Assembly (NCBI GenBank): GCA_963815075.1
Contig: CAWFFK010000004.1
Span: 12,589-76,588 of the forward strand
Source of the DNA: an uncultured Bacteroidales bacterium
Lineage (GTDB): Bacteria; Bacteroidota; Bacteroidia; Bacteroidales; VadinHA17
Length of the DNA stretch: 64,000 nt
Reading direction: 5' to 3'
The notes below the pieces were generated by a model. The model was given only the letters and a program-made list of their open reading frames with translations. It was not told where the DNA came from and made no database searches. Shown here one piece after another: positions 6,047 through 59,456 of this stretch (position 1 is its first letter; every line of letters starts with the position of its first letter). The position numbers and the translations under genes are program-made.

Positions 6047-6072
6047 TTTTTAAAATACTTAGGTGTATAATC

Positions 6073-7560: not shown

Positions 7561-7615
7561 AATGAGCAGTTTTTTGTATTTTTTTAAATATGTATAATTT
7601 ACTATTCCTAATAAA

Positions 7616-9229: not shown

Positions 9230-9255
9230 TTTTTAAAATATTTAGTTGTATAATC

Positions 9256-15600: not shown

Positions 15601-15989
15601 GTAACTGTTAATTGCTGTAATAAATTCACAGGAGCAATTACAATCAGATTATTGGCCAATACTTTAAAGGAGAAGTCCGAATTTTTGAATATCTCACTTA
15701 AAATATTATTAAGTGGTTCATCGGTCTTATCTATGTTTACGATGATTCCTTCAATAGCATCATCACGGTACAAAAACTTATAAGAGGTTTGCTTTTCAAT
15801 AGAACTAAAAAATTCTTTCATGCTTGAATTCTTCAATTGAATAGTAACCTTCTCAGATTGAGAATAGCCGTTTGCTGCAAAGCTTGCAAAACTAATGAGC
15901 AATAAAAAAATAGTTAGTTTCATGAAGAGGGGTAGTTTAGTCAGGTCAAAACATTTGTAACCTGATAATGAAAATTGAAATTTTTTCAT
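12687..15989 (-). CDS. susC: SusC/RagA TonB-dependent transporter with N-terminal STN signalling domain (PUL1)
   Basis: STN-like N-terminal extension, LEEVVVIGYG, LKDAASCAIYGARAANGVVLI, LKWEST, terminal Phe. Confidence 0.95.
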   Translation of the reverse strand: MKKFQFSLSGYKCFDLTKLPLFMKLTIFLLLISFASFAANGYSQSEKVTIQLKNSSMKEFFSSIEKQTSYKFLYRDDAIEGIIVNIDKTDEPLNNILSEIFKNSDFSFKVLANNLIVIAPVNLLQQLTVTGTVSDENGIPLPGVNVQIEGTGTGTSTDINGKYAITLPDVNAVLIFSFIGYEPQKVPTQGKTVIDITLAPSMSSLEEVVVIGYGTQKKKDITTSVSTVKMDEVEKRSMVNLSQAIEGQAAGVQVIQASGRPQGDFSIQVRGATSITAGNEPLYVVDGTPTTSISDLNPADIESMQILKDAASCAIYGARAANGVVLINTKIGSKSGKPVISFRSVYSISNATKMLDLLNAKECAQLLNEEKINAGQAPIINPDTITTNIDWQDEIFFTGHTSDNQLSFSGENLNTKYYISTAYRKSEGILKPSDYKRYSFKVNIDNQMTKWLTAGTNINLSSSKSSDIGSTDPVHGQGLLLDALAYTTPYTPKYKANGDFGSNPHQGGWDNPYSYMYGSNASSRVTSLLGNMYVKVAFTKGLSFRTSLAIDANYRNYDQFDLQAHSEYNRSQGGNAVANRSQQMIWLNENILDYNYSSGKHAITALAGITRQEAKMESSYLTKRGFPDDKVQTLNAGAELVSGSTNASGWTLQSYLVRITYAFDNKYLFSGNFRSDGSSKFGANNRYGYFPSASVGWRISQEEFFSGITAVNDLKIRASFGLTGNQNGIGDYAHMGLISLGGVYPFNGTIYPGSYPNSIGNSDLKWESTKQTDIGIDLSLFKSRIKLTADVYFKNTSDLLLNVNLPYSTGFSNGIQNIGKINNKGFELELSTYNLTGDFNWNTDLNFSLNRNKVIDIGGEDVIMYTAGIIRERGNITIIKEGQPLSVFYGYYSEGVDPQTGNIIYKRNSVSSDYMFSADSDRVVIGNPNPKFVFGINNNFSYKGLSLSIFIQGVYGNDIFNGTRLKLEAMEQVQNQSAATLRRWENPGDVTDIPKAIFGNSDNSLASSRFVEKGTYLRVKNVTLSYDLNSDFLKKAHITSLNVFVSAQNLLTFTKYSGYDPEVSWAGNVGGQIDNAVSLGVDYGTYPNVRTFNFGFNVNF

Positions 15990-15996
15990 AACTTTG
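15989..15996 (+). promoter_or_regulatory. Bacteroidota primary-sigma -7 box, antisense to susC1
   Basis: TAACTTTG matches TAnnTTTG exactly and overlaps the susC1 start codon; no clear -33 box. Confidence 0.5.
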
Positions 15997-16000
15997 TTAG

Positions 16001-16078
16001 GTTAAATGGTTAGTTTTAATTTCAGTTAGACAGATCATTTTTCATAGCGAAGGATGCTGCGAACATCTTTCGCTTTTT
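16001..16078 (+). ncRNA. Putative cis-antisense sRNA (DonS-like) in the fecR-susC1 spacer
   Basis: Bounded by the -7 box above and a plus-strand hairpin AGCGAAGGATG/CATCTTTCGCT (16046-16074) running into a T tract. Ends are approximate. Confidence 0.45.
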
Positions 16079-17398: not shown

Positions 17399-18010
17399 TC
17401 AATAATAATGAATCTTATATTTATCCCTTAAAAAATCCAGAGCTCTCCTGATTTGTGTATCAACTGTATTCTCAGTAATATTCAATTTATTTGCAATCTG
17501 CTTGTAGGTTAATCCTGAAAACCGGCTTAGTTTAAATATCTCCTGCTGTCGATAAGGAAGGTCCATTATAACTGTTTCTATAAAAGAAAGCAACTCATTA
17601 TACAATACATCATCCTTTGTTGCTTCACTCAAATCAAATGAATTAAAAACGAAATGGTCGATAGCTGCCTTTTTGTAAACCTTCTGCCTGAAATCCTGAT
17701 ATACCATGTATCTTGCTATTGTAAACAGGTAGGAAGCAAGGGATTTATTTTCATCCACCTGTCCCCTTTGTTCCCATAGTGCTACAAAAACCCGTTGAAC
17801 AGTTTCCTCGGCATCATCCGAAGATTGATGAAGACTTATACAGAAGTTATAAATGCGTTTATTGTATCGTGAAAAGATTTTCTCGAAGGCAGGAATTGTC
17901 CCCTTCTGTAATCCAAGTATAAGTGTTTTTTCATCCAAGATTGGTATGCTCTTCTTTAGTTGAACCTGTAAATGTATTAAAAATTTAATGTTGTTGTAAA
18001 ACTGTGACAT
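17399..18010 (-). CDS. ECF sigma-70 factor (Bacteroidetes expansion type)
   Basis: AFEKIF, DAEETVQRVFVALW, SYLFTIA, LP.RQQEIFKLSRFSGLTYKQIA..L.I.ENTV; true start may be TTG near 17938. Confidence 0.92.
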   Translation of the reverse strand: MSQFYNNIKFLIHLQVQLKKSIPILDEKTLILGLQKGTIPAFEKIFSRYNKRIYNFCISLHQSSDDAEETVQRVFVALWEQRGQVDENKSLASYLFTIARYMVYQDFRQKVYKKAAIDHFVFNSFDLSEATKDDVLYNELLSFIETVIMDLPYRQQEIFKLSRFSGLTYKQIANKLNITENTVDTQIRRALDFLRDKYKIHYY

Positions 18011-18168
18011 TCCAAAAAAATTCAGGAATCTATTTCAGATTTATCAGATTTAATAATTTGCCTTGCAGGCAAATTAAGGGAGGAGTCGGACTGCAGGGGT
18101 GTAGAGCTCAGGGATCAATGAGCAAAGCGAATTACCCACGCCTCTGTGAGGGGGAGAAAGGGTGAGTG

Positions 18169-18204
18169 GGAGAATAGGAGAATAGGAGAATAGGAGAATA
18201 GGAG
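18169..18204 (+). repeat. Octamer microsatellite (GGAGAATA)x4.5
   Basis: Read directly; lies in the purine-rich spacer between the two PULs. Confidence 0.9.
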
Positions 18205-18205
18205 G

Positions 18206-18243
18206 AAAAACAAAAAACCATGCGAAGCATGGTGGTTGTTTTC
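18206..18243 (-). terminator. Intrinsic terminator after GH95, ending the PUL2 enzyme run
   Basis: Minus strand ACCAUGC-UUC-GCAUGGU followed by UUUUUGUUUUU. Confidence 0.75.
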
Positions 18244-18310
18244 TATTTGCAAAAATGGTATTCAGTTCTTATTATTAACAACTTATACTTTCAAATAGAG
18301 GTGTCCGAAT

Positions 18311-20761: not shown

Positions 20762-20797
20762 AGGTGGTTGGTAGTTAGTTATTCGGTCCATCTATAA

Positions 20798-24992: not shown

Positions 24993-26558
24993 TCAATGAT
25001 TTGAAATATAACCGGTCCTGAACCAGTCAAAATCAACAAATCCACCGGGAGTTTTTGCAGCATAGTTAAACAATCCGAAGCGATAACCCATAAAGTGAGG
25101 CATTGAATATTCCATTTTAAGCTGTGTTCCAATAGGTATCCATGTTTTGCCATCGGGGCTGTAAAAGAAATTTGCAATATCTGCCTTGTCCCTGAAATCA
25201 CATTCAGCTTTCAGATAAGCGGTTTTTTGTGTAAATGGAACACTCTGAACGTCGACAGGCTTACCGGTTTGGGCGCTGACCATAACAACCGATCTGGCTC
25301 CATTAATATTTCTGACTCCTATCAGGCCGAATTTTTTCTGTAAAAGGGCAAGTCCTGCAAAGTCACCATCCTTCATGTTTAAAACATCAATTGATACAGA
25401 ACCTGAGCATTCGGGCCCGAAGGTGCGCTGTGTTAATGTATTTCTTGCGGAAACGAAAATGGTATCAATACGGCCTGTTGTCAGCCGAAGGTAACCTTTT
25501 CGTTGAGTAACCGACCAAAGTTTATTGTCGGGATTGTGGTTCCATTGCCAGACCAGAGGAAGGGCAGGCTCTCCCTTACGACGATTGAATTCATCTGATG
25601 CCACAATACCGGGAATTAACCCTTTGCTGGCAGGAAGATCAAGATTATCGGGCACTTTGCCATCAATGCCCAGGACAGGCCATCCTTCCACCCATTTTAC
25701 CGGAACGAGATAAGGGATACGTCCTACCGACCCATAATCGCGGAAGAGATAAGCAAACCATTTGCCATCGGGGGTGTCAATGAGCCCCCCCTGGGCTACA
25801 CCCTTATCCTGCAGGGCAAGCCTTCCTTCCCACGGGCCGGTAATCTTCTCAGCTCTGTGAATGACAACTGTCCTCATCCCTCCTCTTGGCCAGGTGATAT
25901 TAAAAAGATAATATTTACCCATAACTTTAAACAGTTGGGAACCTTCACCGAGTCCGCTGTCGGATCCTGACGGTATACTGGTATTCTCGATGAGAACCTG
26001 ATCTGTACCTGCCATAAGACCGGTGAGATCAGCATTCAGTTCGACTTTTCTGAGTTTAATATTTCCATAAATCATATAAATACGGCCGTCATCGTCGAAA
26101 AACAGTGTATTGTCATGAAGACTCGGATTGAAAGAAATTTCTTTCCATGGCCCTTTTTCGATATCCTTTGTTGAATATATATATGTCTTATCAGTGGTCT
26201 GAGAAAAGGTACTGACATAATATACACCGTTATGGTAACGGATGCAGCTGGCCCAGGAACCTCTCCCATAGGAATTCTTCCCATTACTTAGGTTCAATGC
26301 ATCGACATCGTCCAGAATTTGGTAGGCATAGTTTACAATCTGCCAGTTTATCAGGTCCTTTGATTTCATTATTGGTACACCCGGACTCATGTGCATCGTA
26401 GTGCTGCTCATATAATAGGTGTCCCCAACCCGGACCATTGACATATCGGGAACATCGGCAAAAATAATGGGGTTTTGAGCATGCTCTGGCTGTGCGGAAA
26501 CAGTGATATTTAAAGAAGCAGCAACAAGTGCCAACAAGCTAAAATATATAGTCTTCAT
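24993..26558 (-). CDS. Two-domain GH43 (beta-propeller plus beta-sandwich), GH43_10-like
   Basis: NPIIFADVPD, SSTTMHMSPG, GSWAS, EGS, AQGG, WQWNHNP, ARNTLTQR, FMGYRFGLFNY. Confidence 0.88.
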   Translation of the reverse strand: MKTIYFSLLALVAASLNITVSAQPEHAQNPIIFADVPDMSMVRVGDTYYMSSTTMHMSPGVPIMKSKDLINWQIVNYAYQILDDVDALNLSNGKNSYGRGSWASCIRYHNGVYYVSTFSQTTDKTYIYSTKDIEKGPWKEISFNPSLHDNTLFFDDDGRIYMIYGNIKLRKVELNADLTGLMAGTDQVLIENTSIPSGSDSGLGEGSQLFKVMGKYYLFNITWPRGGMRTVVIHRAEKITGPWEGRLALQDKGVAQGGLIDTPDGKWFAYLFRDYGSVGRIPYLVPVKWVEGWPVLGIDGKVPDNLDLPASKGLIPGIVASDEFNRRKGEPALPLVWQWNHNPDNKLWSVTQRKGYLRLTTGRIDTIFVSARNTLTQRTFGPECSGSVSIDVLNMKDGDFAGLALLQKKFGLIGVRNINGARSVVMVSAQTGKPVDVQSVPFTQKTAYLKAECDFRDKADIANFFYSPDGKTWIPIGTQLKMEYSMPHFMGYRFGLFNYAAKTPGGFVDFDWFRTGYISNH

Positions 26559-26593
26559 AAATTGATATAAATGAGTCTTAAGATAGTAACAAA

Positions 26594-28484
26594 TTATTTT
26601 ATTACGGAAAACTTTTTTGTTGATGTACCATGTTTATTTTTGATTGAAAAAATATAAACACCATTTTCTAAAGCAGATATGTCAAAAGAAAGTGGAGAAT
26701 ATCCGTTATAATCCACAAACGAATTTAAAATTTTTCTACCCGTCATGTCATAAACAGTAATTTCAGTTTGCCCTGCAAATGTCTGACTCAAACTAACATT
26801 TATATTGTCTTTTGCCGGATTAGGAAAAATCTTTATTTCACTATTACCATTTTTAAATTCCGAAATTCCGGCAGTGGCTTTTGCAAGTAGAACAGCCGTT
26901 GTAGAAAGTGCAGGAACTGTTATGAATAAAAGAATTTGAAATGACTGTTACAATGTTCTTTTTCAAGGCATTGTCGGTGTGCAATTTGAACGTTTCAGTT
27001 GCAGGCAAGTCTGACAATTCTAATGCAGAATAGGTTCCGTTACCTGCTGAAAACCCATTTATAATTATGGTTGCATAACGTGGCGTATTCATGTCGCGGT
27101 TCACAATAATTACTGTCATCGAATCGGCTGATTCATTCACGGTAGTATAGGCCGAAACTGTATTTTCGAGCGAAGATGTACTTGAAACACTATAAGTTTT
27201 TGCGTATCGGCTATATAAGTGCAATGTTTCCCACATACCTGTTTCCCAATTCCAGGGAGAGAACAATTCAACACCATTGTTTGCGAATGTACCAAGCGCC
27301 GAACCATACACTACAGAGCAAACATTCGGGTTTTTAGAAGAGGGTCCCCATTCACTGATACCAAGGGTGATACCATGATTCTCACCGAAATATTTAGTAA
27401 GCCAATCGTTAATACGTTGAAAAATGTATTCTTTAGTTTGTGAATTGTCCCAGCCTCCATCAATTGTTTTCACCCCATTGGCCCCGGGATATTCATAATT
27501 TTTATCGTAATAAATCCTGTGTAGCTGCAAAGCCTCTAAATCGGAGGCTGCATACGGATAATTATGCAAATCCACTACATCGAGCAGCCGGATACCGCTT
27601 GCTTTTTGTTCATCAGCTAAACATTTTATAAAATATTCAAGCCAGCAATAGTATTTTCCGTCTATTGTTAATCCCTCATTTCCCCATTTATACCATTGCC
27701 ATTCACTGGTAGTAACCGGCCCACAGATTTTAATTTCGGGGAATAAGGCGCGTGCTTTTTTGGCAACTTCTATAAACCTGTCGATGAATTCCGAAGCGGG
27801 AATAAGAGTGGACATCACATCGTCGTGAGTTCCATTCCATATGTCCGGTTCATTATCCATACTCCAATAAAGAAATTGGTTCTTGTTCAATCCGATTCCA
27901 TTGGCTCCAAACCAGTGGTTTAAAATTTCCACTGTTGAATCGGCAGGCCAATTCATCAGGTATTTTGAAGGATCCCCTTCAACCAGTGCTTTGCCATTAG
28001 GATTAGCTGTATTTGGAGTACCGCCTCCAGCCAGATTTTGATTAACACCCTCCCACCACTGCGAATTGTTGAAGCTCCAGTCGTCGAAATTATAGTCCTT
28101 ACTCGAAGCGACTTTACCGATCAGTTGAAACGCCCACATTACCTGCATACCGGGTTGATTCGCCTCAACTTTTTTCGAAGTTGCGTCCCAATCGTTACTG
28201 TAAACATTGTTATACCAGTCGGGGTGACTTGTAATCTTCCTGCGCCAGTTATATTTTGTGGCATTATTCCCCCCGTTCATGCGGGCAAAACATAAACCGG
28301 CATCTTTATAAAATTCAGCTGGTTTGTCAAAACTTTCATTCCGCCCATAGATATATGGAGAAACAGTTTTCTTATTCACACCAGCATCTATTGTAATTGT
28401 AACATCCTGTGCATGAACTGAAGTCAGTAATAAACTACTTTCCAGAACCAACATATGACTTATTTTTATAAATCGATTTTTCAT
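26594..28484 (-). pseudogene. GH44 endoglucanase/xyloglucanase with type-A T9SS C-terminal domain, split by a frameshift near 26925
   Basis: GGNNATKYNW, MDNEPDIW..THDDV, GISEW in the long ORF; the alternate frame continues ITVPALSTTAVLL..IKIFPNPAKD..VYDMTGR..LENGVYI..KKFSVIK to the stop at 26594. Confidence 0.85.
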
Positions 28485-45037: not shown

Positions 45038-48000
45038 TTACTTTAATTTCCTGATAAATTGAGAAGGAGAAATCCCGAATTGCTTCTGGAAACTGGTTGC
45101 GAAATATGATGGAGATGAGAATCCGACAATGTATGATATTTCATTGATTCTGTAACTTCCTTCCGACAATAACTCTGCTGCTTTTTTAAGCTTTACCAGC
45201 CTGATATATTCTACTGAATTCAGGTCCGTCAGGGCTTTTACCTTTCTGTAAAGAGTTGAAACGCTGGTTCCCAATATATCTGCTATCTTTTCCACACTTA
45301 AATCATTCTCAGAAATATTATCCACTAATATGGAATTTAGTTTTCTAAGGAATTCCTCGTCAGTTTTATTTATTGCAACTGATTTGAAATGAGCAAGAGG
45401 AGAATTTATGAAATTTTGCTGATTGAGACTCCTGTTTTTGATAAGATTAAGAATCTGGGCTTTTAAGAGTTCTGTTGCGAATGGTTTTTCGATATAAGCA
45501 TCTGCCCCTGAATCAAGGCCTTCTATCCTTGCATTCAGATGTATGGTGGCAGTAAGGAGTATAACAGGTATATGGCTGAATTCTATGTTAGATTTAATCT
45601 GTCTGCAAAGTTCATATCCGTTTATAACTGGCATAATAACATCGCTGACAACCAGAATTATATTATATTTCTTAAGTGCCTTCAGCGCTTCGTCGCCATT
45701 ACAAGCAAGGATGACGTTATGATCACCGGATATTTCTTTAGCTATAAATTCCCCCATTTCAACTTCATCCTCTACAAGAAGAATGTTTGGAGAAGTGCTT
45801 TCAAGAGAACCAAAAATTTCAAACTCATTATGTTCACTCAGATTCAATTCATCAGGCTCATATATATTCCTTGAAATTGATTCTTCCTGGTACCTGGTTA
45901 GTTCCAGAACAAATGAATTACACTGCCTTAAATTAGCATCAAGATAAAGTCTGCCATTATGAAGTTCCGCCAGTGACCGGGCCAGAGAAAGTCCTAGTCC
46001 TGTACCTTTTTCCCCCGGTTTATCAAAGTCTATCTGATAAAATGGCTTGAAAATTTTTTCACCAAGTTCTTTTGGTATTAATTTACCATCGCTGTTTACA
46101 CGTATCCTTAATACATCTTCCGGATTTGTTTCGGTTTCGAAAAATAAATCAACTTTCGATTCGGCAAATTTAAAAGCATTTGATAACAGATTACTTAATA
46201 TTTTTGTTATTGCTTCCCTGTCCACAGCCAGACTATAATGATTTACTGCCGAATGCAGCTGAACCGATATCCGTTTTTCTTCACTGTATGAAAGGAATAA
46301 ATTGAATGTTGAATTAACCAACTCAAATAAATCAGTTTTAATAAAATTGAGTTTAAACATTTCTTTCTCAGTCTTCCGGAAATCCAGAAGCTGGTTGGTA
46401 AGGTTCATCAGCCTGTCGGTATTTCGATTAATAATTGAAAGGTTTTCTTCAGTATCCTTTGAATTTGTAATTCCCGACTGTAATATCCTGTCCAGGGGCC
46501 CCTTGATTAAAGTCAGAGGTGTACGCACCTCATGAGTAATATTAGTAAAAAAATTAATTTTTGCATTAAGTATCTCCTTCTCCTTTTGGGTTTCCAGTAT
46601 ATCTATCTTTCTTTGTTGTTCCAGGGTTTTCTTTTTTAAATAAAAGCTAATCAGCGTAAATATGATTGATACTAAAATAAGAATGTAGAGAGCATAAGCT
46701 GGAAGTGAGAACCAGAATGGAGGTGAAATATTAATATCCAGAAGAGCTTCATCAGAGCTCCAGATATTGCCATCAGAAGAAGAAATAACCCTGAACCTGT
46801 ATTCTCCGGGAGAAAGATTGGTATAGTAGACCTTCCTGTTGCCTGATATCAGAACCCAATCAGGATCAGAGCCTTCCATTCTATATTTATACTCTGTCAG
46901 ATTAGGACTCGTATAAGCTGGAGATACAAAGTCAATACTAAAAGAAGACTGATTATATCTTAACGAAATCCGCCTGGTCTCAAGAAGTGATTTGAAATCG
47001 CGCGATCCTGCAGAATTATCAATAAATTCTTTACCATTAACCTGGAATCCTGTAAAATAGACAGGCGGATTGTATGTGTTTACTTTTATATCAGCAGGAT
47101 AAAATGAAATCAGGCCGCTAACTGTGCCGAAATACATTTTACCATGTTTATCCTCATAGGCTGAATTATAACTGAACATATTATCCAAAAGACCATCGTC
47201 TTTTGTATATGTTTTAAATTTATCTGAAGAAGGATCCAGACAAAGAAGACCCCTGGTTGATGTTATCCAAAGATTTCCGAGACCATCCTGCAGGATAGCA
47301 CAATATATTGCAAAATCAATATCCTTGCCAGGTACATATCTGGTAATTTCTTCTGCTGCCCCGTTAATAAAGCTGAAACCATTACCTTCTGTAGTGAACC
47401 AGATCTTATGATTGGTATCCTCATAAATTGAGGTAACATGCTCATCCCTCAGACCTTCATAATCTCCTTTTTCAGACAATATTTTTTTACATATCCCCGA
47501 TAATCTGTCATATTTATACAACCCTTTTCCATAAGTTCCTATCCAGATATTTTTTTGGGAATCCTCAAATAAACAATGGATAAAGGTTCCTGCTGCCACA
47601 TTATCCAGGAATCTGAATGACGATGTCTCCCGGTTAAACTGATATAATCCTATGGTGCTTCCCGCATAAATTGTCCCATCAGTTGTTTTCAGGAATGTAA
47701 CAAATGAATTTGTTCTGAAACCGCTGCTCTTATCATTCATTTCAAAATGACTTTTTAACTTTTGTGCAGGGATGTTTAAGATATATATTCCAATATCGTA
47801 GGTTCCAATCCAGAGGTCATCAGCATCAACCAGTAACCCCTGGATATTTCTGCTGTTTATATTAACATGATTATAACCATCCGTATAGCTGGAAAACAGC
47901 CCCGTTTGATCATCAAATTTCATCAGACCGGCATCTTCGGTACCAACCCAGATATTTCCATATGAGTCAGCATGAATCTCTCTTACAACACTCCCGTTAA

Positions 48001-49039
48001 GTGCTCCGGACAGCCCTGTAGGGTAATACTTTTCAAACGGCTTGTTTTCCTGTGCAAGGTAATTGGCTCCTCCGTAAAAAGTCCCTATCCAGACACCCCC
48101 TTCTCTATCCTTAATAATTGTACGGACTGCATTGTTTGAAATGGAAAAAGGATCTGAACCAACCTTATGAAGATTTGTGACATAGCCCGTCTTCAGGTTA
48201 TAAATAAAAATACCAGTTTCCGTACCAATCCAGATTTCCTTGTCACTGTTCAAATATGTTGTTCGTATAAAGATATTATTCCATTTATTGTCTTTTTCGA
48301 ATAAATTTATTACTCTCCCGGTATTTGGTTCAAATTGCCTTAAGCCTGCAATATTGGTAGATACTATCAGTCCAAAATTGCCTGCATCCAGGATGTTTCC
48401 AAGTTGAACAGAAGCAGATATTTCTTTTTTGGTAAGAATCATGTACCCGATAAAACTATCACTTCGTGCATCATATTTATAGATTTTACCATCAGTGGCC
48501 GACACCCAGACATCTCCCGCACTTGTCAATGAAATATTTCTTGGTTCAAAGTATTTAACTGAAGGATAAAAGTTTAGCTTTTTACTCCTTTTATCATATC
48601 TGTATAACCCTGAATAAGTTGCTATCCATATACAATTTTTATTATCAGCCTTAACATCAATTACCATTCCTCCAATTTTGTAATTTTCTGATTCAATTGT
48701 CCCAAAATAATCATTATCAGGCAAATAGTAACAGACTCCCTCCGAGGTGCCAATCCAGATACAGCCCTCACCGTCTTCGCATAATGATATAATGAAATTG
48801 TTTTTAAGGCAATTTGAAACCGACGGGTTGTGAAGGAAAATTTTAAACTGAAATCCATCAAACCTGCTTAGTCCCTCTTTGGTGCCAAACCAGATAAAAC
48901 CTCTCCTATCCTGCATGCAGGCCATGACAGTATTATTCGATAAACCATTATCATTCCTGTAATGCCTGAAATAAAAGGTTCTTCCACTGGTAACCAGGGA
49001 TAATAATGAAACAATAAATGATATAATGAAAAATCTCAT
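45038..49039 (-). CDS. Hybrid two-component system sensor/regulator (HTCS)
   Basis: Beta-propeller repeats, YTNLSPGEY (Y_Y_Y), TM helix, THEVRTPL, GTGLGL, receiver SDVIMP, AraC HTH VGFSSPSYF. Confidence 0.96.
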   Translation of the reverse strand: MRFFIISFIVSLLSLVTSGRTFYFRHYRNDNGLSNNTVMACMQDRRGFIWFGTKEGLSRFDGFQFKIFLHNPSVSNCLKNNFIISLCEDGEGCIWIGTSEGVCYYLPDNDYFGTIESENYKIGGMVIDVKADNKNCIWIATYSGLYRYDKRSKKLNFYPSVKYFEPRNISLTSAGDVWVSATDGKIYKYDARSDSFIGYMILTKKEISASVQLGNILDAGNFGLIVSTNIAGLRQFEPNTGRVINLFEKDNKWNNIFIRTTYLNSDKEIWIGTETGIFIYNLKTGYVTNLHKVGSDPFSISNNAVRTIIKDREGGVWIGTFYGGANYLAQENKPFEKYYPTGLSGALNGSVVREIHADSYGNIWVGTEDAGLMKFDDQTGLFSSYTDGYNHVNINSRNIQGLLVDADDLWIGTYDIGIYILNIPAQKLKSHFEMNDKSSGFRTNSFVTFLKTTDGTIYAGSTIGLYQFNRETSSFRFLDNVAAGTFIHCLFEDSQKNIWIGTYGKGLYKYDRLSGICKKILSEKGDYEGLRDEHVTSIYEDTNHKIWFTTEGNGFSFINGAAEEITRYVPGKDIDFAIYCAILQDGLGNLWITSTRGLLCLDPSSDKFKTYTKDDGLLDNMFSYNSAYEDKHGKMYFGTVSGLISFYPADIKVNTYNPPVYFTGFQVNGKEFIDNSAGSRDFKSLLETRRISLRYNQSSFSIDFVSPAYTSPNLTEYKYRMEGSDPDWVLISGNRKVYYTNLSPGEYRFRVISSSDGNIWSSDEALLDINISPPFWFSLPAYALYILILVSIIFTLISFYLKKKTLEQQRKIDILETQKEKEILNAKINFFTNITHEVRTPLTLIKGPLDRILQSGITNSKDTEENLSIINRNTDRLMNLTNQLLDFRKTEKEMFKLNFIKTDLFELVNSTFNLFLSYSEEKRISVQLHSAVNHYSLAVDREAITKILSNLLSNAFKFAESKVDLFFETETNPEDVLRIRVNSDGKLIPKELGEKIFKPFYQIDFDKPGEKGTGLGLSLARSLAELHNGRLYLDANLRQCNSFVLELTRYQEESISRNIYEPDELNLSEHNEFEIFGSLESTSPNILLVEDEVEMGEFIAKEISGDHNVILACNGDEALKALKKYNIILVVSDVIMPVINGYELCRQIKSNIEFSHIPVILLTATIHLNARIEGLDSGADAYIEKPFATELLKAQILNLIKNRSLNQQNFINSPLAHFKSVAINKTDEEFLRKLNSILVDNISENDLSVEKIADILGTSVSTLYRKVKALTDLNSVEYIRLVKLKKAAELLSEGSYRINEISYIVGFSSPSYFATSFQKQFGISPSQFIRKLK

Positions 49040-49081
49040 TCCTGTAATTTATAAAACTTCTATGGAGTATTGAAGATTATT

Positions 49082-49089
49082 CAAAGATA
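49082..49089 (-). promoter_or_regulatory. -7 box upstream of the HTCS gene
   Basis: TATCTTTG on the minus strand about 43 nt before the start codon. Confidence 0.55.
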
Positions 49090-49214
49090 ATTTATGGATT
49101 AACATTAAACATAAAATTCTGATCTTAAATGAAAGTATCATGATAATGAAACATGTTAATTTCATTTGTGAGCATTTGAAGTGAGGATTGTCATTTCCTA
49201 TGGGATCTTCTTTT

Positions 49215-49323
49215 GAATAAGAAAGAGGCTGGTCTCACCTGAAAGACAGCCTCTTTCTAATAAACCCAAGTCTAACTAACCAATACAAAGTAATACTAAC
49301 TACACAAATATTGCTTTGGCATA
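49215..49323 (-). ncRNA. Putative trans-acting sRNA between susD2 and HTCS
   Basis: Separated from susD2 by a terminator, G/U-rich body with repeated GUUAG, own terminator-like hairpin AGAAAGAGGCUG..CAGCCUCUUUCU (49220-49258). Ends approximate. Confidence 0.45.
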
Positions 49324-49355
49324 TCAGGCAAGAAGTTACAATTAAGAATCAGTAG

Positions 49356-49391
49356 TTAATTAAAAGAATCAGCCAAATGCTTCAAATAATC
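49356..49391. repeat. 36-bp block, copy 1 (32/36 identical to 55013-55048)
   Basis: TTAATTAAAAGAATCAGCCAAATGCTTCAAATAATC, followed closely by GTCAGGA as in copy 2. Confidence 0.85.
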
Positions 49392-49409
49392 AGTCAGGAG
49401 TACTTTCAG

Positions 49410-49442
49410 AAAAAAAAGGGGAATACTCACTGGTATTCCCCT
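49410..49442 (-). terminator. Intrinsic terminator after susD2
   Basis: AGGGGAATAC/GTATTCCCCT stem with an adjacent A run that reads as a U tract on the minus strand. Confidence 0.8.
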
Positions 49443-49504
49443 CAATTTTTTAGATAATGTCAGGATAACATTACATCACCAAAATGTAATCTGATTTCCT
49501 TGCA

Positions 49505-51334
49505 TTACCGGTATGCCTCATTTTGATCGCACAATTTATTTTTCAATATTTCATCAGTTGGAATTGGCATATCCATCTTTAAAAGAACGAAATCAAAATT
49601 ACGGTAAGTATTCCATGCATCCTGTACCAGAGGGCTGGTGTTCGGATAACCTACCCCTTTTGGATAATTGATGTTAATGTGATCCTCCATAAACCCTGAA
49701 CGTATCAAATCCTGAGCAAGACACCATTCAGCATTGAATTCCTTACGACGTTCCTGGCCCAGGGCTACCAGCCATACCGGAGAAGCAAAACCTTTGGCAG
49801 CTTTTAACGAGGTATAATAAGTCTGCGCATCAGGAACAGTTACTGTGGCTGAATTGAATGGAAGAGGATAAGCAGCAGGCTTTACTATATCAGTAGCGCC
49901 GTTAGCTAAAAAGAATTGAGCCATGTTTTGATAATAAGGAAGGTAGGTAGCAGTTAATGCAGCCTCCTTACCAACTTCCAGATTACCCCAGGCGCGGTCA
50001 CGAATTTGATTAATATAGCCCCAGGCGGTTGCATCATTGGCACCATTCAAATGGAACAGGCATTCTGCGCGGTCCAATAAAACATTTGCATAACGTTTGT
50101 AATAGATCTGTTGAGGGCCCCATGGTGCCTGATAGTTTGCACGGGTTGTACGGAAATATTTTAAAGTCCAGATGGAAGGAGCAGCTTCACCACCCATTAA
50201 AAAATGATAATGAGTATTTAATGAATCACCAACTGAATAATTCACCTGAAGATATGGATTGTAACCATAGTTAGTGGCAGATCTCCATGCAGGATCAATA
50301 TTTGTTACTTTACCGGTGACAGCTGAAGCTTCACGACGTTTATCGCCTGGTTCATAACAACTCCACCATTCCCATGAAAGGTACAAGGTACCCCATCCAC
50401 CCACAGATGGAGGAGCTACAAAATGGATCATCCAGTTGTGAGCCTGGGATAGATTGGACCATTGGTTCCATTGTGAACCTTCGTCAAGAACTTCTTCCCA
50501 GATACATTCTTTTGTCCAGACAGCTCCCGGATCATACAAAGTAGTAAATGAAGCATTTAACTCATATTTACCACTCTGAATTACCTGTAATAAAGCGGCA
50601 TCTGCTAATGTGTAGTTAGCCTGAGCTTCATCAGGAACACGATATGCTTTCCACATATAAGCTTCTCCAAGGTATGAAAGGGCAAAACCTTTGGTACAAC
50701 GTCCATACTCTCCACCCATTGGGTCCCAGTCAAGTTCATCAGCTGCTGCTTTCAAATCATCAATGATGAAATCCCACATTTCTGCGAATGTTGCAGCACG
50801 GGCTTTTTCCGGAGTGTTAATATAGTTTTCGCCAGTTGCCAGCATAGGCACACGACCGAAAGCTTTTGCCAGCCACATATAGTAGAAAGCACGGATGCAT
50901 CTGGCCTGACCGTCAAGCGAAGTTTTTACAGAAGAAGTAATTTTATCTGCGCTACCAAGACCGGCGAGGAAATCGTTGCAACGGGAAATTGCTGTATAGG
51001 CCTGTCTCCACCCGCTCAACAGTTCCGGGCTACCAGGAGTCCAATTTTGCTGGTTCCAGTCTTTGTCCCACCCTGTTGCCTGAGTATCCATTGTCGGGTG
51101 GCCACCTATAAACAAGTTTGGTTTGATACCCCAGTCTCCGTCGATATCTGTCGGAAGCATCATAGTATAGCAACCAATAAGACCGGCTTTAGCATCAGCA
51201 TCTGACTTAAACATTTGATCGGCAGCCAGAATGGAATAGTGATCCACCGACAAATAGTCCTTTTTGCAGGAGGTTATTCCTAACAGAAATAACACACTTG
51301 AAACTGTAAAAAATATTTTTGATATATTTTTCAT
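49505..51334 (-). CDS. susD: SusD/RagB family lipoprotein (PUL2)
   Basis: Lipobox ITSC from ATG 51334; GQARCIRAFYY..FGRVP, RYANVLLDRAE, ERRKEFNAE, PIPTDE..QN. Confidence 0.92.
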   Translation of the reverse strand: MKNISKIFFTVSSVLFLLGITSCKKDYLSVDHYSILAADQMFKSDADAKAGLIGCYTMMLPTDIDGDWGIKPNLFIGGHPTMDTQATGWDKDWNQQNWTPGSPELLSGWRQAYTAISRCNDFLAGLGSADKITSSVKTSLDGQARCIRAFYYMWLAKAFGRVPMLATGENYINTPEKARAATFAEMWDFIIDDLKAAADELDWDPMGGEYGRCTKGFALSYLGEAYMWKAYRVPDEAQANYTLADAALLQVIQSGKYELNASFTTLYDPGAVWTKECIWEEVLDEGSQWNQWSNLSQAHNWMIHFVAPPSVGGWGTLYLSWEWWSCYEPGDKRREASAVTGKVTNIDPAWRSATNYGYNPYLQVNYSVGDSLNTHYHFLMGGEAAPSIWTLKYFRTTRANYQAPWGPQQIYYKRYANVLLDRAECLFHLNGANDATAWGYINQIRDRAWGNLEVGKEAALTATYLPYYQNMAQFFLANGATDIVKPAAYPLPFNSATVTVPDAQTYYTSLKAAKGFASPVWLVALGQERRKEFNAEWCLAQDLIRSGFMEDHININYPKGVGYPNTSPLVQDAWNTYRNFDFVLLKMDMPIPTDEILKNKLCDQNEAYR

Positions 51335-51361
51335 AATGTTAATCATATTTATGTGTAACAA

Positions 51362-54300
51362 TTAGAATTGAATGGTCAAACCAAATGAAAAAATTCGTGG
51401 GTTAGGATAACGTCCTGTATCCAAACCTGTAAAGAGCACACTTCCTTGTCCGGCTTCAGGATCACCATATTTGTTGTAACTGGAGAAGCAGAATAAGTTT
51501 TGGATAGAAGCGTAGATACGTGCACTTTCAAAGTGTATTGAATTCAACACATTACTGCTAAGATTATACCCAATCTGAACATTACTGACTCTAAAGAAAT
51601 CCCCTTTTTTAACCCACTCGTCAGAACCACGCATGTTGTAATTCAAATCCAGAAATGACAATCTCGACATAGTGGTGCTATGATTTTCTGGTGTCCATGC
51701 ATCTGCTGCAACCTCTTTTAAGACGTTGGGCGTTGTACTGTTATCACTCGGGAACATGTTAGATAATGTCATTGCAGAGTAAGAATAGATTTTTGCGCCA
51801 TATACTCCATAAGAGTAAATTGAGATATCCCAATTCTTATAAGCAGCGTTTAAGGTCAAGCCGTAGTTTAATTTAGGAAAACCATTACCTAAGACAGTCC
51901 TATCCATATCATCAATAAATCCATCACCATTAATGTCTTTATACCTGAAATCACCAGGAACAGTCGTTGACCCATTATTGTATCCTCCAGGGTGACCTGC
52001 AGCTATAGCAGCATCGTTGTAGGTATTAATTTCATCCTGAGATTGGTATATACCATCTACCTGATATCCCCAGAAAGAACCTACGGCATAACCTTCACGA
52101 CAAATTGAGTGACCGTTCCAGTGCGTACCTGAAGTAGCTCCTACTGCAGCTTGATTGGAACCGTCAGGACTCCCATTAGGCCATGATGAGTTTTCACTGA
52201 ACAGATCAGCACCCATTTTTATAATTTTGTTTTTTAAGGTTGAACCTGTTAACAGGGCACTGACATTCCAATCAGGATTAATTTGCTTCTTATAGCTTAG
52301 ACTGAATTCAAGACCTTTATTCTGAATATCTCCGTAGTTGGTATATACCTGGGTGTAACCGGATGAAGGGCGTATTGACTGGTACAACAACAAATCTTTA
52401 GACGTCCTGATGAAATAATCTACGGTAACAGTCAGTTGATTTTGCAATAAACCCAGGTCAATACCTATGTCACTTTGTTCATTGGTCTCCCATTTCAACC
52501 TGGGATCAGTTAATGTTGGGGCATAACCGGTAGCTAATTGTCTTGAAGTATTCATTCCTGATTGTCCGTTCTGTCCATAAAAAAAGTATTGAATCTTATC
52601 TGTAGTTAATGCTGTAACAGATAGATCTGTCGGACCTCCTGAGTTACCGGTCTGTCCCCAACTCAAACGAAGTTTCAAATTACTTATAGTCGGATTGCTT
52701 CTCAGGAAATCCTCCTGTGAAATACGCCATGCAACAGCAGCTGACGGGAAGGTACCCCACCTGTTATCGGCACCGAAATTAGAAGAACCATCCCGGCGCA
52801 CGGTTCCATAAAGGATATAACGATCCTTCAAAGTATATTGGAGACGACCGAAGTAAGATAATCCACGGGTTTGAAGGTCATAAGCACCAAGTCCACTCCT
52901 TGCAGTAGGATCTTTAGTCAAACTGACATCACGGATATTAGCTGCAGGGAAATCATTTCCGGAGGCATTACTCCAGTTTCCGAAGCCCTTGTTTACGGTA
53001 TTACCTGCCATTAAAGTCAAATTGTGAATTTCATTCTGCCAATTGTAAGTCAGATAACTTTCAATAGCAAGATTGTTATAATTGCTATTGTTGATTCCTA
53101 AATAATACTTGGCATCGTAATTCCACAATGGAATCTCTGTTACCCCGTCAGACAAGTAACGTTTATGATTACCCGAAAAGCGATACCAGTTGACTGTGGA
53201 ATAATTATAAGATGCTATTGTTTTGAAAGTTAAACCATTAAACAATTTAATATTGGCATTAACACTGAGAAGCACCTGGTTAAGTTTGGTTATACCATTA
53301 TTTTCCATCTGAACAGCATAAATGTTATCACCCAGATTCCCATCGTTTGAGCCAACACCGCCTTGTTCAGCAATACCAAAAGTTCCATTTGCGTTTTTAA
53401 CTTTAGGACTTACAATCTGATTAGTTATGGGGTCAACATAATCCATTGTGGGACACGTGAAAGCCCAGTCACGTTGAGAAGAAAGGTTCCCGTTATTACC
53501 ATTAGCAAAATTACTACCATGTGATTCTGAATGAATGAAATTGAGATCACTACCGATCTCAAGGAAATCAGCCACTCTGTTAACTATATTGGCACGACCG
53601 GTCAGACGCTTGTAATTTGAATTTATAACGATACCGTCATTATTCAGATAACCTACTGATAAGTTAGACTGGGTCTTTTCCGTACCTCCTGAAGCTGAAA
53701 GATTATATTGCTGTTTAAGGGAAACGCGCGTCATTTCCTTTTGCCAGTTAATGTCGTTTCTTTGACCGTCATATTGAGCGGCCCAGATTTGGTTAGCCAG
53801 AATTCCACCATCGTTTGCGCGCGCTGTACGTATATTTGCTGCATACTGGTCAACATTACAAACATCCAATGTATTAGCTAATGTTTGGACACTAAAGTCT
53901 GATGAAAGAGTAAAACGTGTTTTACCTGTTGTACCATGTTTAGTAGTAATCATGATAACACCATTAGCTCCGGCTGCACCGTATATAGCTGTAGCAGAAG
54001 CATCTTTTAATATTTCAATGCTCGATACATCATTTGGGTTAAGAAAATTGACGTTTGTGCCTACCTGTACACCATCTAATACATAAAGCGGATTAGCGCT
54101 ACCGTTAATGGTTGCAACACCACGAATATGAATGGCTGAGTTTGCATCTGGAGCACCATCTTGTGCTGTAACAACAACACCCGCGGCCTGTCCTTTTATA
54201 CCTTGCAAAATGTTCGTAGGAGCTTTTTTCAACATTTCGTCTCTGGTAACTGAAACAACAGATCCGGAAATATCACTTTTCTTTGCAGTACCATAACCAA

Positions 54301-54724
54301 CAACAATAACCTCTTCCAGATTTAACACCACCGGATTCATTATAACATCAATGGTATTCTGTCCTTGTATCTGAACTTTTTCAGTAGTATAACCAATATA
54401 AGTAAAAACAAGGGTTTTAGCTGAATTTGGAAGAACAATAGAATAACTTCCTGTTGCATCAGTTATCGCACCTACTGCAGTTCCTTCAACGGATACGTTA
54501 ACGCCTATAAGAAATTCATTTGTCTTAGCATCCCGAACGGTACCAGAAACTTTCTGTTGCTGATCACTGACAGCCGGACTATAAGCTAAACCTAAATCCA
54601 GCCCTAAGGCATTAAAAGTGGTTAAAATACTTAAAATAACAGTTAGTTTTAAAGGCAGAAGCAGTCCTCTTAGTTTCCCATGTGGAAAACAATAGGTCAT
54701 GAAATAAAAACAGTATTTCTTCAT
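51362..54724 (-). CDS. susC: SusC/RagA TonB-dependent transporter (PUL2)
   Basis: LEEVIVVGYG, ILKDASATAIYGAAGANGVIMITTK, LKWET, terminal Phe; no STN domain. Confidence 0.95.
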   Translation of the reverse strand: MKKYCFYFMTYCFPHGKLRGLLLPLKLTVILSILTTFNALGLDLGLAYSPAVSDQQQKVSGTVRDAKTNEFLIGVNVSVEGTAVGAITDATGSYSIVLPNSAKTLVFTYIGYTTEKVQIQGQNTIDVIMNPVVLNLEEVIVVGYGTAKKSDISGSVVSVTRDEMLKKAPTNILQGIKGQAAGVVVTAQDGAPDANSAIHIRGVATINGSANPLYVLDGVQVGTNVNFLNPNDVSSIEILKDASATAIYGAAGANGVIMITTKHGTTGKTRFTLSSDFSVQTLANTLDVCNVDQYAANIRTARANDGGILANQIWAAQYDGQRNDINWQKEMTRVSLKQQYNLSASGGTEKTQSNLSVGYLNNDGIVINSNYKRLTGRANIVNRVADFLEIGSDLNFIHSESHGSNFANGNNGNLSSQRDWAFTCPTMDYVDPITNQIVSPKVKNANGTFGIAEQGGVGSNDGNLGDNIYAVQMENNGITKLNQVLLSVNANIKLFNGLTFKTIASYNYSTVNWYRFSGNHKRYLSDGVTEIPLWNYDAKYYLGINNSNYNNLAIESYLTYNWQNEIHNLTLMAGNTVNKGFGNWSNASGNDFPAANIRDVSLTKDPTARSGLGAYDLQTRGLSYFGRLQYTLKDRYILYGTVRRDGSSNFGADNRWGTFPSAAVAWRISQEDFLRSNPTISNLKLRLSWGQTGNSGGPTDLSVTALTTDKIQYFFYGQNGQSGMNTSRQLATGYAPTLTDPRLKWETNEQSDIGIDLGLLQNQLTVTVDYFIRTSKDLLLYQSIRPSSGYTQVYTNYGDIQNKGLEFSLSYKKQINPDWNVSALLTGSTLKNKIIKMGADLFSENSSWPNGSPDGSNQAAVGATSGTHWNGHSICREGYAVGSFWGYQVDGIYQSQDEINTYNDAAIAAGHPGGYNNGSTTVPGDFRYKDINGDGFIDDMDRTVLGNGFPKLNYGLTLNAAYKNWDISIYSYGVYGAKIYSYSAMTLSNMFPSDNSTTPNVLKEVAADAWTPENHSTTMSRLSFLDLNYNMRGSDEWVKKGDFFRVSNVQIGYNLSSNVLNSIHFESARIYASIQNLFCFSSYNKYGDPEAGQGSVLFTGLDTGRYPNPRIFSFGLTIQF

Positions 54725-55012
54725 AGTAAATTAGAGTTAGGTAAATAATTAAATGATTTTTTAAACTAAATACATGTTCTTTAGTTAGTTAATAATGAAA
54801 AAATTCAATTTGTTTAAAAATCAGATCTAAAATTTCTGTCAGGTTACTGGTTTGATTTTACTTTGTTTCATAGGCAAATAAATAATTAATTCAGGTTAGT
54901 TATCTTATACTTTGTTATCTCAAACTTTGTCGGATGATGGAAAACTCTTTCAAAAAAATTAGAATCAAACAGGTTTATCTTTCAAAAACAAGATAATAGT
55001 TAACATTTGTGT

Positions 55013-55048
55013 TTAATTTAAAAAATCAACCAAATGCTTTAAATAATC
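55013..55048. repeat. 36-bp block, copy 2, upstream of susC2 (candidate regulator-binding/promoter region)
   Basis: TTAATTTAAAAAATCAACCAAATGCTTTAAATAATC. Confidence 0.85.
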
Positions 55049-55305
55049 GGTCGGTCAGGATTTTTAGAAAACCTGATTTTTTTTGAATGAAATTTCAAAT
55101 GAAGTGATGAATAATTGCAGAAGCCGTACCTCTCTGCCACATTTGGACAGTCAGGTTTTAATTAATATATATGACTATATTATTGGCATTTATAACCGCA
55201 AAGTTCGAAACGCAAACACAAAGTACGCAAATGCAATATTTTGACATGCATCTCTTTGGGATCTTTTTATAAATCCTTAACAAACTCAAAGAGTAGTTAT
55301 TTTGT

Positions 55306-57203: not shown

Positions 57204-58451
57204 ATGTCGGACCTTAAAAATCCTGCATCCTTACAAATTTTATCTGTTTCTGAGAAGAGACGGATCAGGGTAGCTGTTTCATCGGTCTATTTTTGCACAG
57301 GACTCTGTTTTGCCTCCTGGGCAAGTCGTATTCCGGATATAAAGACCGCTTTACACCTTAATGATGCAATGCTTGGAAGTATTCTTTTTGCATTACCCGT
57401 TGGACAATTCGCAATGATGCCATTTTCAGGCAGACTGGTTACCCGGTTCGGGAGCCATAGAATACTGGCTTTCGCTCTTACAGCTTATGCTCTTTGTCTT
57501 AATAACATAGGACTTGTAAGGGAAGGATGGCAACTCGCAATTGCGCTGTTTATCTTCGGTCTGGCGGGTAATCTGACAAATATTTCCATCAATACACAGG
57601 GAGTGGCAGCCGAGCATATTTATGAACGTCCCATAATGGCATCATTTCACGGAGTATGGAGTCTTGCCGGTTTTACAGGCGCCCTTATCGGGTTGCTTAT
57701 GATCAATCTGAAAGTCACTCCCTACTGGCATTTTATTACTGTTATTGTACTGGCATTATCAATATTCGCTATTAACTATCCTTCCCTGGTAAAAAGCAGT
57801 GCAGATGAAATAACCGGTGTGCCGAAGAGAAGGTTTTTTACAAAGCCCGATGGAGTACTCCTCCAGCTTGGAATAATCGGCTTTTTCAGTATGGCCAGCG
57901 AAGGAGCCATGTTCGACTGGAGTGGTGTATATTTCAAGGATGTGGTGAAAGCCCCGGCATCGCTTGTGGTACTGGGTTATACTTCATTCATGATAATGAT
58001 GGCTACGGGACGCTTTGTTGCCGATAGGATGATCTCAAAAATTGGTCGGAAGAAGCTGCTCCGGATTTGCGGAATAATGATCTCCACGGGATTGTTCATT
58101 TCAGTCCTGTTTCCATATCTGGTACCATGTACGATTGCTTTCATGCTGGTAGGGTTAGGCGTTTCCAGTATAGTTCCTACTGTTTACAGCACAGCTGGAA
58201 AGAATGGCAGGGTGCCACCCGGTATTGCTCTTGTAACAGTATCAAGTGTCAGTTTCCTCGGTTTTCTTATGGGACCACCTCTTATAGGACATATAGCTGA
58301 GTTAGCAGGACTACGTTATTCTTTTGCCCTGATTGGTTTTTTTGGAATTGGTATCGCCCTTCTTGTCAACAGGATAAAAGCGTTCAAGGCAGAACAGCCA
58401 GTCCCTGCGGAACAGACAACAGATCAGCTACCACCTTTCCCGGATATGTAA
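57204..58451 (+). CDS. MFS transporter
   Basis: About 12 hydrophobic helices; ASWASRIP, MASFHGVWSL, EGAMFDWS, GFLMGPPLIG. Start moved to ATG 57204, downstream of the -7 box. Confidence 0.9.
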   Translation: MSDLKNPASLQILSVSEKRRIRVAVSSVYFCTGLCFASWASRIPDIKTALHLNDAMLGSILFALPVGQFAMMPFSGRLVTRFGSHRILAFALTAYALCLNNIGLVREGWQLAIALFIFGLAGNLTNISINTQGVAAEHIYERPIMASFHGVWSLAGFTGALIGLLMINLKVTPYWHFITVIVLALSIFAINYPSLVKSSADEITGVPKRRFFTKPDGVLLQLGIIGFFSMASEGAMFDWSGVYFKDVVKAPASLVVLGYTSFMIMMATGRFVADRMISKIGRKKLLRICGIMISTGLFISVLFPYLVPCTIAFMLVGLGVSSIVPTVYSTAGKNGRVPPGIALVTVSSVSFLGFLMGPPLIGHIAELAGLRYSFALIGFFGIGIALLVNRIKAFKAEQPVPAEQTTDQLPPFPDM

Positions 58452-58494
58452 GGAAAGGCGGAAGGCGGAGATTTAAGGTTCCCCTCCTGGGAGA

Positions 58495-58536
58495 GGTTAA
58501 GGTTAAGGTTAAGGTTAAGGTTAAGGTTAAGGTTAA
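58495..58536 (+). repeat. Hexamer microsatellite (GGTTAA)x7, with two more units near 58614-58625
   Basis: Read directly. Confidence 0.95.
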
Positions 58537-58704
58537 GACAAAATTATAACATTAGATATTAACTTAAATAGTTGAAGAATTAGCCCCCCTGCGGGGGGGT
58601 TGGGGGGTAATAAGGTTAAGGTTAAGGCGGGAGGCAGAGGATGAAGGCCGTGCCTACCGCTACCAGATGTGTTGCTTGCGGGTAAACCTTTTTATCAGGT
58701 ACTT

Positions 58705-58731
58705 TGTTATAATGTTATAATGTTATAATGT
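58705..58731 (+). repeat. Octamer repeat (TGTTATAA)x3
   Basis: Read directly; about 75 nt upstream of the gene at 58806. Confidence 0.9.
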
Positions 58732-58805
58732 AAAAACAGAAAATCTAAAGTGATTATTGGTACAGAGCAATTAAGAAGTAATTCATTAACAGATTTTTTT
58801 GAAGC

Positions 58806-59456
58806 ATGAAAAAAATAGTGCTGATTGGTGCCAGCGGGTTTATAGGTTCAGTGATACTCAATGAGGCGTTGTCCAGGGGTCATAAAGTTAAGTCAGTAGT
58901 GCGACATCCTGAAAAGATCATGGTATCACATCCCAATCTGATGAAAGAAAAAGGTGATGCTTCTGATCCTCAACTTGTAAGCAGGCTTTGTGAAGGCAGT
59001 GATGTTGTCATCAGTGCTTATAATCCGGGATGGAAAAATCCTGATATTGCCAGTGACACTTTAAGGGTCTACCCCACTATTCTAAAGGGTGTAAGGGAAT
59101 CAGGTGTCCGAAGATTGCTCATAGTCGGAGGTGCCGGCTCACTTTTTGTCAAACCCGGAGTCAGACTTATGGATTCCGGCAGCATTGCGGAACCTTTCCT
59201 GCCAGCAGTCAGAGCTCTGGCAAAATTTTATCTCGAGATTCTTTCAGAAGAAAAGGCTGTTGACTGGGTTTTCTTTTGTCCTGCACAAAAGATCATTCCC
59301 GGAAAACGTACTGGTATTTTCCGACTCGGAAAAGATGACCTGATATATGGCAATGAGGGCAAAAGCAGTATCTCTGTTGAGGATTATGCAGTCGCCATGA
59401 TGGATGAAACTGAAAATCCTGCTCATCATATGGAGAGATTTACAATAGGTTACTGA
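58806..59456 (+). CDS. NAD(P)H-binding oxidoreductase (NADH-flavin reductase/YwnB-like)
   Basis: IGASGFIG Rossmann motif, RLLIVGGAGSL, ISVEDYAVA, H..ERFT. Confidence 0.9.
   Translation: MKKIVLIGASGFIGSVILNEALSRGHKVKSVVRHPEKIMVSHPNLMKEKGDASDPQLVSRLCEGSDVVISAYNPGWKNPDIASDTLRVYPTILKGVRESGVRRLLIVGGAGSLFVKPGVRLMDSGSIAEPFLPAVRALAKFYLEILSEEKAVDWVFFCPAQKIIPGKRTGIFRLGKDDLIYGNEGKSSISVEDYAVAMMDETENPAHHMERFTIGY

Follow-up and report, generated by a model that had tools for sequence, protein, structure and literature searches.

A candidate small RNA with complementarity to susC leaders, placed behind a duplicated HTCS-linked repeat in a Bacteroidales PUL

The window, i.e. the whole 64,000-nucleotide stretch of DNA analysed here, comes from the genome of an uncultured Bacteroidales bacterium (G000; 88% complete, 17 contigs). 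Pfam annotation reveals two PULs on its minus strand. PUL1 encodes an ECF sigma factor, FecR, susC1 (12687-15989) and susD1. PUL2 has the order susC2, susD2, a gap of 465 bases, HTCS, and then esterase and glycoside hydrolase genes. The non-coding unit considered here sits between the susD2 terminator and the HTCS gene, on the same strand as susD2 (Table 1). Other features of the window are a GH30 and beta-helix gene pair duplicated in tandem with near-identical intergenic spacers (4436-10743), intergenic simple repeats at 58451-58806 and 18010-18311 (TTAACC-type hexamer runs; 9-mer runs), and a 294-base gap (26558-26853) that resembles, and may be, a remnant of a type IX secretion C-terminal coding tail. 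The genome also has a tandem array with a 243-bp period (contig C12:34363-37782) and a hairpin array with a 73-bp period (C6:~338500-338900).

Table 1. Positions in the window of the unit, its neighbours and its predicted targets
Feature	Position	Strand	Basis or remark
HTCS (hybrid two-component regulator), likely activator	45038..49039	minus	Pfam; repeat linkage to HTCS family
Canonical TAnnTTTG -7 box of the HTCS gene itself, downstream of T2	49082..49089	minus	seen in most HTCS orthologues shown
Predicted sRNA, ~112-115 nt	49213..49327	minus	5′ part weakly structured, G/U-rich, C-poor; terminator
Terminator hairpin T2, GAGGCTG/CAGCCTC type common in the genus	49216..49258	minus	-23.5 kcal/mol, z -5.63
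Conserved core UUGGUUAGUUAG, predicted seed	49272..49283	minus	identical at 12/12 positions in four relatives
First GUAGUUAG word, secondary seed	49295..49303	minus	matches GH95 leader and C2:77838 susC leader
Alternative -7-like box, one mismatch to TAnnTTTG	49305..49312	minus	would give +1 ~49300, ~85 nt
Degenerate -7 box position	49332..49339	minus	same register as the TAnnTTTG boxes in the homologous divergent promoters; +1 predicted at ~49327
Operator-like direct repeat (GATT-n-TTTAA-type half sites, 21-bp period)	49356..49397	minus	copy of element upstream of susC2; likely HTCS binding site
Terminator T1, closes susC2-susD2 transcript	49410..49443	minus	hairpin and U-run, z -4.05
susD2	49505..51361	minus	Pfam
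susC2	51362..54724	minus	Pfam
susC2 translation-start region (-18..+13), best predicted target in the window	54711..54742	minus	32-nt imperfect duplex over AUG
Second repeat copy, in susC2 promoter	55013..55054	minus	matrix match
susC1 leader, target first proposed	15988..16004	minus	weak support
GH95 leader word upstream of likely start 20761, possible target	20771..20779	minus	word match and scoring

A preliminary description of the locus proposed a ~105-nt minus-strand unit flanked by two hairpins. Both hairpins are real, the size fits the -7 register discussed below (+1 ~49327), and the sequence words quoted at that time are all in place. The T1 (49443-49416) and T2 (49258-49220) hairpins fold far better than shuffled sequences, which the 69 nt preceding T2 do not (z -0.13). 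T2 was missed by a simple terminator scanner; its U-tract is broken in G000 and clean in most orthologues. The unit is a discrete conserved stretch of DNA. Rfam searches of the whole window at gathering scores give no match, E-value scans (E<=10) of the susD2-HTCS gap return hairpin noise only, and none of the Bacteroides sRNA models in Rfam matches the unit. A conserved 5′ hairpin is not supported (z -0.13 to -1.68, double changes in 2 of 34 pairs), and a leader peptide was rejected, as the ATG of its 8-codon reading frame is present in three of six aligned copies. No alternative anti-terminator structure is seen in the unit.

The preliminary description overlooked that 49397-49356 duplicates the repeat upstream of susC2. 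With an operator matrix trained solely on four susC promoters from other genomes, the 7.9 million positions of G000 yield 58.5 bits at the susC2 promoter, 52.9 at the unit and 14.8 at the next site, and these two are the only sites in the genome to exceed 15 bits. HTCS motifs have been described with ~21-bp half-site spacing (PMC3878776, available part of the text), and the ~21-bp spacing that the unit shares with the adjacent PUL promoter fits this motif type. A genus-wide search with 49200-49400 as query finds long matches in 5 of 211 other genus genomes; short matches, to its first 40-70 bases, map upstream of susC genes. Among 45 loci with relatives of the HTCS, 14 have near-full-length matches to the unit, all at HTCS identity of at least 81%, and with more distant HTCS orthologues the repeat points away from the HTCS gene. 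The repeat tracks this HTCS family and is a likely binding site of the adjacent HTCS, which would act as activator. Recent duplication, no less than function, could explain why the two promoters share it. Since the unit carries a copy of the control element upstream of susC2, it is likely to specify a sugar-induced small RNA, and the induction linked to PUL2 that was postulated earlier thus gains support from the repeat common to the two promoters.

The homologous promoters also suggest where the RNA would start. Of 12 divergent promoters 11 were displayed, and 8 of these have a perfect TAnnTTTG box 52 nt past the first half-site. At this offset seven of 11 unit promoters have GTAATTTG, and the G000 unit has GTAACTTC; every one of the 11 unit promoters shown has a degenerate -7 box, that of G000 most of all, and the seven susC copies are similarly degenerate. 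The 52-nt register therefore places +1 near 49327 and predicts a length of 112-115 nt. The alternative +1 at ~49300 assumes a 4-nt gap between box and start, by analogy with the FopS-10 oligos. A sigma-70 promoter scan was also run, but the sigma-70 model is inapplicable to Bacteroidota. Several loci (L314-L329, L347, L348) show what is apparently the ancestral layout, with the HTCS gene divergent from an operator-bearing promoter. The operon downstream of several of these divergent promoters presumably starts with RpiB-like and transketolase-like genes, as named from their translations, and it may hint at the inducing sugar.

There are 11 distinct orthologous units (G000 included, identical sequences collapsed) and a second copy in the relative G218. 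Four relatives, which are kin and not independent, were used to gauge conservation. The core (49283-49272) is identical at 12/12 positions in all four, at HTCS four-fold-site identities of 0.79, 0.81, 0.63 and 0.68; 16-18 of 18 positions are identical in 49312-49295, 36-42 of 42 in the operator, and 11, 8, 9 and 7 of 11 in 49294-49284, which holds the 7-bp block proposed to pair with susC1. By this comparison the unit body, and not just the promoter, is under selection. GGTTAGTTAG is intact in 8 of the 11 distinct units; L341, L343 and L345 have short bodies that are devoid of it, and L350 has lost T1, repeat and promoter altogether. In two relatives (G092 and G117) the gene upstream of the unit is not susD but an FG-GAP-repeat gene, and similarity begins at the repeat; thus the unit is not a susD 3′ UTR. 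It moves as a module with the HTCS gene. Among 71 loci with susD2 relatives, part of them viewed to 330 bases, the unit is seen behind the closest ones only. Close paralogues are absent from G000 besides the susC2 promoter (one full copy), matches in 40 random relatives are the common GAGGCTG terminator or chance only, and model matches outside the genus are at terminator level only. The reach of the unit is limited, since only a small subclade of uncultured Bacteroidales has it (5 of 211 other genus genomes).

Alternatively, the unit may simply be a duplicated HTCS-responsive promoter and terminator that serves the HTCS gene, by inducible read-through or by insulation from susCD transcription, or a vestige, with no trans targets at all. 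In orthologous loci the unit is always directly upstream of HTCS, its body varies from ~20 to 50 nt, the core is missing from 3 of 11 units, and G/U-rich stretches are generally enriched before terminators (GGTTAG, 12/480 versus 15/2914 leaders). However, selection acts on the body and not on the promoter alone, the HTCS gene has a separate -7 box beyond T2, neither an anti-terminator alternative nor a conserved leader peptide is seen, and the second copy in G218, on another contig, has no HTCS in the ~300 bases to the contig end. This explanation is unlikely, though less so than the other alternatives considered below.

For target prediction, 2914 genes were called in G000 and their leaders (-60..+20) scored with accessibility taken into account. 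The scoring program, home-made and IntaRNA-like, replaced a plain RNAduplex ranking that proved too crude. Most start codons are automatic calls; three were hand-corrected, those of susC1, GH95 (for the scoring with +1 at 49327) and the second ECF-type susC. The positive control is the FopS-like RNA of the genome (contig C8, described below), which ranks all nine susC leaders within the top 124 of 2823. With +1 at 49300, the unit ranks the same nine leaders 2, 5, 26, 32, 84, 107, 363, 590 and 1793 of 2823. Their mean energy is equalled by 1 of 133 shuffles (5 of 154 with +1 at 49327) and the rank-based AUC by 11 of 133; with 35 susC leaders of relatives, 2 (mean) and 3 (AUC) of the 133 shuffles do as well. 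At the word level, the core complement CTAACTAAC occurs in two of nine own susC leaders, six of 36 susC leaders of relatives and none of 2817 other leaders, and CTAAC in 5/9, 16/36 and 84/2817, respectively. About six of 458 natural pre-terminator segments, that of the unit included, reach its susC-complementarity score; the FopS-like RNA and two antisense-to-susC units are among the segments with higher scores.

When the orthologous RNAs are scored in their own genomes, class pairing is significant against shuffles in G218 (2/95), G117 (3/99) and G099 (1/244), and non-significant in G092 (12/100) and G137 (28/103). No single target was found that is strong across all carrier genomes. With +1 at 49327, the susC leaders at C2:77838 and C6:122860 are equalled by 8/154 and 5/154 shuffles, respectively; the C2:77838 type is the best susC leader in G092, G137 and G099, and is unremarkable in G218. 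Leaders of genes other than susC are also among the top ranks, and that of Thx is rank 1. The leader of a POT/PTR2 peptide transporter (C6:36166) ranks 3, 1, 1, 1, 1, 27 and 18 with seven orthologous RNAs, but it was rejected as a conserved target because the cognate pairs are weak in G092 (53/163 shuffles), G137 (129/160) and G117 (20/171); the case shows how easily A/C-rich leaders match. Words and shuffles taken together, the seed fits a generic susC-leader word rather than a specific pair with susC1, and these comparisons lend modest support to complementarity with the whole class of susC leaders. Pairing with the class beats the shuffled controls modestly, and pairing specific to susC1 does not.

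The unit might instead act mainly on the mRNA of its own susC2, in an incoherent feed-forward arrangement whereby HTCS induces both and a long duplex covers the start codon. The earlier observation that AACUAAC-type words recur in the susC2 leader is correct, and the imperfect 32-nt duplex at -18..+13 has a raw energy of -22.4 kcal/mol. It ranks 5 of 2823, is equalled by 0/133 (+1 at 49300) or 3/154 (+1 at 49327) shuffles, and is kept in G218 (4/95). It should be pointed out that susC2 was picked after the scan among the best of nine susC genes. The pairing is also weak in G092 (53/100), G137 (35/103) and G099 (41/244), and an operator-bearing susC was not found in G117. A role mainly in feedback on susC2 is improbable. 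These ranks bear as well on the substrate hierarchy across PULs that was first suggested. The susC genes of other PULs are indeed in the top ranks, but susC2 outscores susC1 (rank 5 versus 32), and hierarchy thus becomes one option beside self-feedback. The GH95 leader match that was also listed holds if the second ATG (20761) is the start (1/154 shuffles, one of five genes tested).

The class pairing invites comparison with FopS. In the available part of PMC11697453, FopS of B. thetaiotaomicron (RF04319) is described as 14 paralogues of ~65-70 nt that have a single-stranded seed and a terminator and block susC translation. The likeness to FopS paralogues drawn by the preliminary description does not extend to membership. 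There is no RF04319 match at E<=10 in 49000-49560, in a search of the genome or at three orthologous loci, and the paralogue search finds one full copy of the unit in G000 (an 88% complete genome) and two in G218, compared with 12-15 FopS paralogues per genome. The unit resembles FopS in its single-stranded 5′ part (z -0.13) and intrinsic terminator (z -5.63), and in a predicted U/G-rich seed complementary to susC translation-initiation regions. Unlike FopS, it has no UUUUUCAU anti-start seed, with a degenerate UUUGUAU at the aligned place, is longer than 65-70 nt, and lies within a PUL behind an HTCS-type repeat, whereas FopS has a canonical sigma-ABfr promoter. The FopS northern probe has no match in the unit with three mismatches allowed.

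A FopS-like sRNA of the genome's own is found at C8:269382-269456 (L273:1383-1457, minus), with an RF04319 score of 37 bits (E 5.6e-4), below the gathering score of 56 bits. It has the anti-start seed and is divergent from a sensor-kinase gene. Of 101 genomes of the genus 98 have a match, and an alignment of 11 copies shows 40 invariant bases in the seed. The upstream region contains a TAnnTTTG box as well as an invariant TTGGCACG-n-TTTG stretch, which we take to resemble a sigma-54 site; sigma-54 is encoded in G000. The element suggests, by its sequence, FopS-type control beyond the Bacteroidaceae. A GGUUA...GGUU pattern is common to the unit and the 3′ half of this RNA, and the predicted pairing across the susC class is weaker for the unit. 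Alignment of the unit body with the 3′ part of the C8 seed is significant for four orthologues (1-83 of 2000 shuffles) and non-significant for the G000 copy (183/2000), G099 (588/2000) and the second G218 copy (1006/2000); either common descent or convergence on the same targets could account for the likeness. Further GUUAG-rich stretches before terminators are candidate sRNAs with a similar seed (C9:~109540-109620, plus; C15:~64109, C7:~182905 and C15:~239464, minus). One of these lies between an ECF sigma gene and fecR, and one has TAnnTTTG ~100 nt upstream. In addition, some loci with susD2 relatives (L047, L054, L058, L070 and others) have TTAGTTAG-type words just past the susD stop and before the terminator, possibly 3′-derived RNAs with the same seed.

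Action through a protein, e.g. titration of an RNA-binding protein rather than mRNA pairing, is another way to read the body. G000 encodes an RRM-1 protein (C10:120690) that looks RbpB-like, RbpB binds the single-stranded 5′ regions of FopS (PMC11697453, available part), and a repeated short word that tolerates changes in length fits protein binding. The conserved word is, however, the exact complement of a word specific to susC leaders, and titration seems quite improbable.

The version first put forward, in which susC1, the ECF-type neighbour, is the specific target and is blocked by a 7 + 5-bp duplex at its start codon, fares worst. The duplex does form (-10.5 kcal/mol without accessibility) and its pattern occurs twice in the genome, but it was chosen post hoc. 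With accessibility the best-scoring susC1 site is at -47..-33, away from the start codon, and 11/133 (+1 at 49300) or 26/154 (+1 at 49327) shuffles do as well; the 7-bp block is unchanged in only one of five relatives, and five carrier genomes (72-97% complete) yield no susC1 match at E<=1e-80. With the other ECF-type susC at rank 363 of 2823, the block unconserved and susC1 within the shuffle range, ECF-type susC genes are not borne out as specific targets. The susC1 side of the 7-bp block is moreover the reverse complement of the TAnnTTTG box of an antisense RNA that resembles the DonS type, PUL-associated cis-antisense RNAs (PMC7366714, PMC10994844, in part), and such a box is present at both ECF-type susC genes. 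This promoter box in the target word explains the 7-bp match independently, and specific control of susC1 is highly improbable. The two DonS-like units (15989-16078 of the window, plus; G000 C9:~110826-110895, minus) each have a perfect TAnnTTTG box over the start codon and a terminator within the fecR-susC gap.

Comparison with other known PUL RNAs relies on the available parts of the same and one further source. Like DonS-type RNAs, the unit is PUL-associated, about 80-130 nt and complementary to susC leaders; unlike them, it lies downstream of susD2 on the same strand, with no overlap of a susC 5′ end and with imperfect complementarity. SrcF of Segatella copri is 272 nt and is repressed by HTCS-Inu, and its direct targets are undefined in what is available of PMC13750123. 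By that description the unit may be set beside SrcF as intergenic and tied to an HTCS and PUL expression, but in the unit a shared copy of the operator points to activation, and a seed for susC leaders can be discerned. GibS has promoter motif 2 and non-susC targets (PMC7366714, in part). The unit is like GibS in being weakly structured and, by prediction, sugar-responsive and trans-acting, with long AU-rich seeds near start codons, and unlike GibS in its HTCS-type repeat and in having susC leaders as predicted targets. As far as these partial sources go, the RNAs known to control PULs comprise cis-antisense RNAs (DonS), paralogues expressed globally (FopS) and an RNA that is repressed by an HTCS and whose targets are undefined (SrcF). 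An sRNA that shares an activator site with the susC of its PUL and has an anti-susC seed was not seen in the literature covered, which for the most part excludes subscription papers.

We favour the unit as an HTCS-co-induced, trans-acting sRNA, FopS-like in action without FopS membership, that would be directed against susC leaders as a class, although we regard the case as evenly poised. The adjacent HTCS, on sensing its sugar, would switch on both the unit and susC2 through the shared repeat, and a stand-alone RNA would end at T2. Its G/U-rich GUUAG seed would pair with the CUAAC-rich leaders of several susC mRNAs and lower their translation, that of susC2 included. From the DNA we infer that the unit is transcribed and where its RNA starts, that the HTCS binds and activates it, and that the RNA pairs with its targets and represses them. 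Hierarchy, through the susC genes of other PULs, and feedback, through susC2, both score in the top ranks.

More tentatively, and with some doubt, a glycan-sensing HTCS may have acquired a FopS-like seed module downstream of a second copy of its operator, to give a substrate-induced, PUL-specific sRNA that represses the importers of competing PULs. If real, the RNA would provide a simple route for one sugar to down-regulate the importers of others, or to limit its own uptake. If the capture is true as well, it would represent a direct RNA mechanism for substrate hierarchy among the PULs of Bacteroidota, one whose birth would be traceable from an ancestral divergent promoter.
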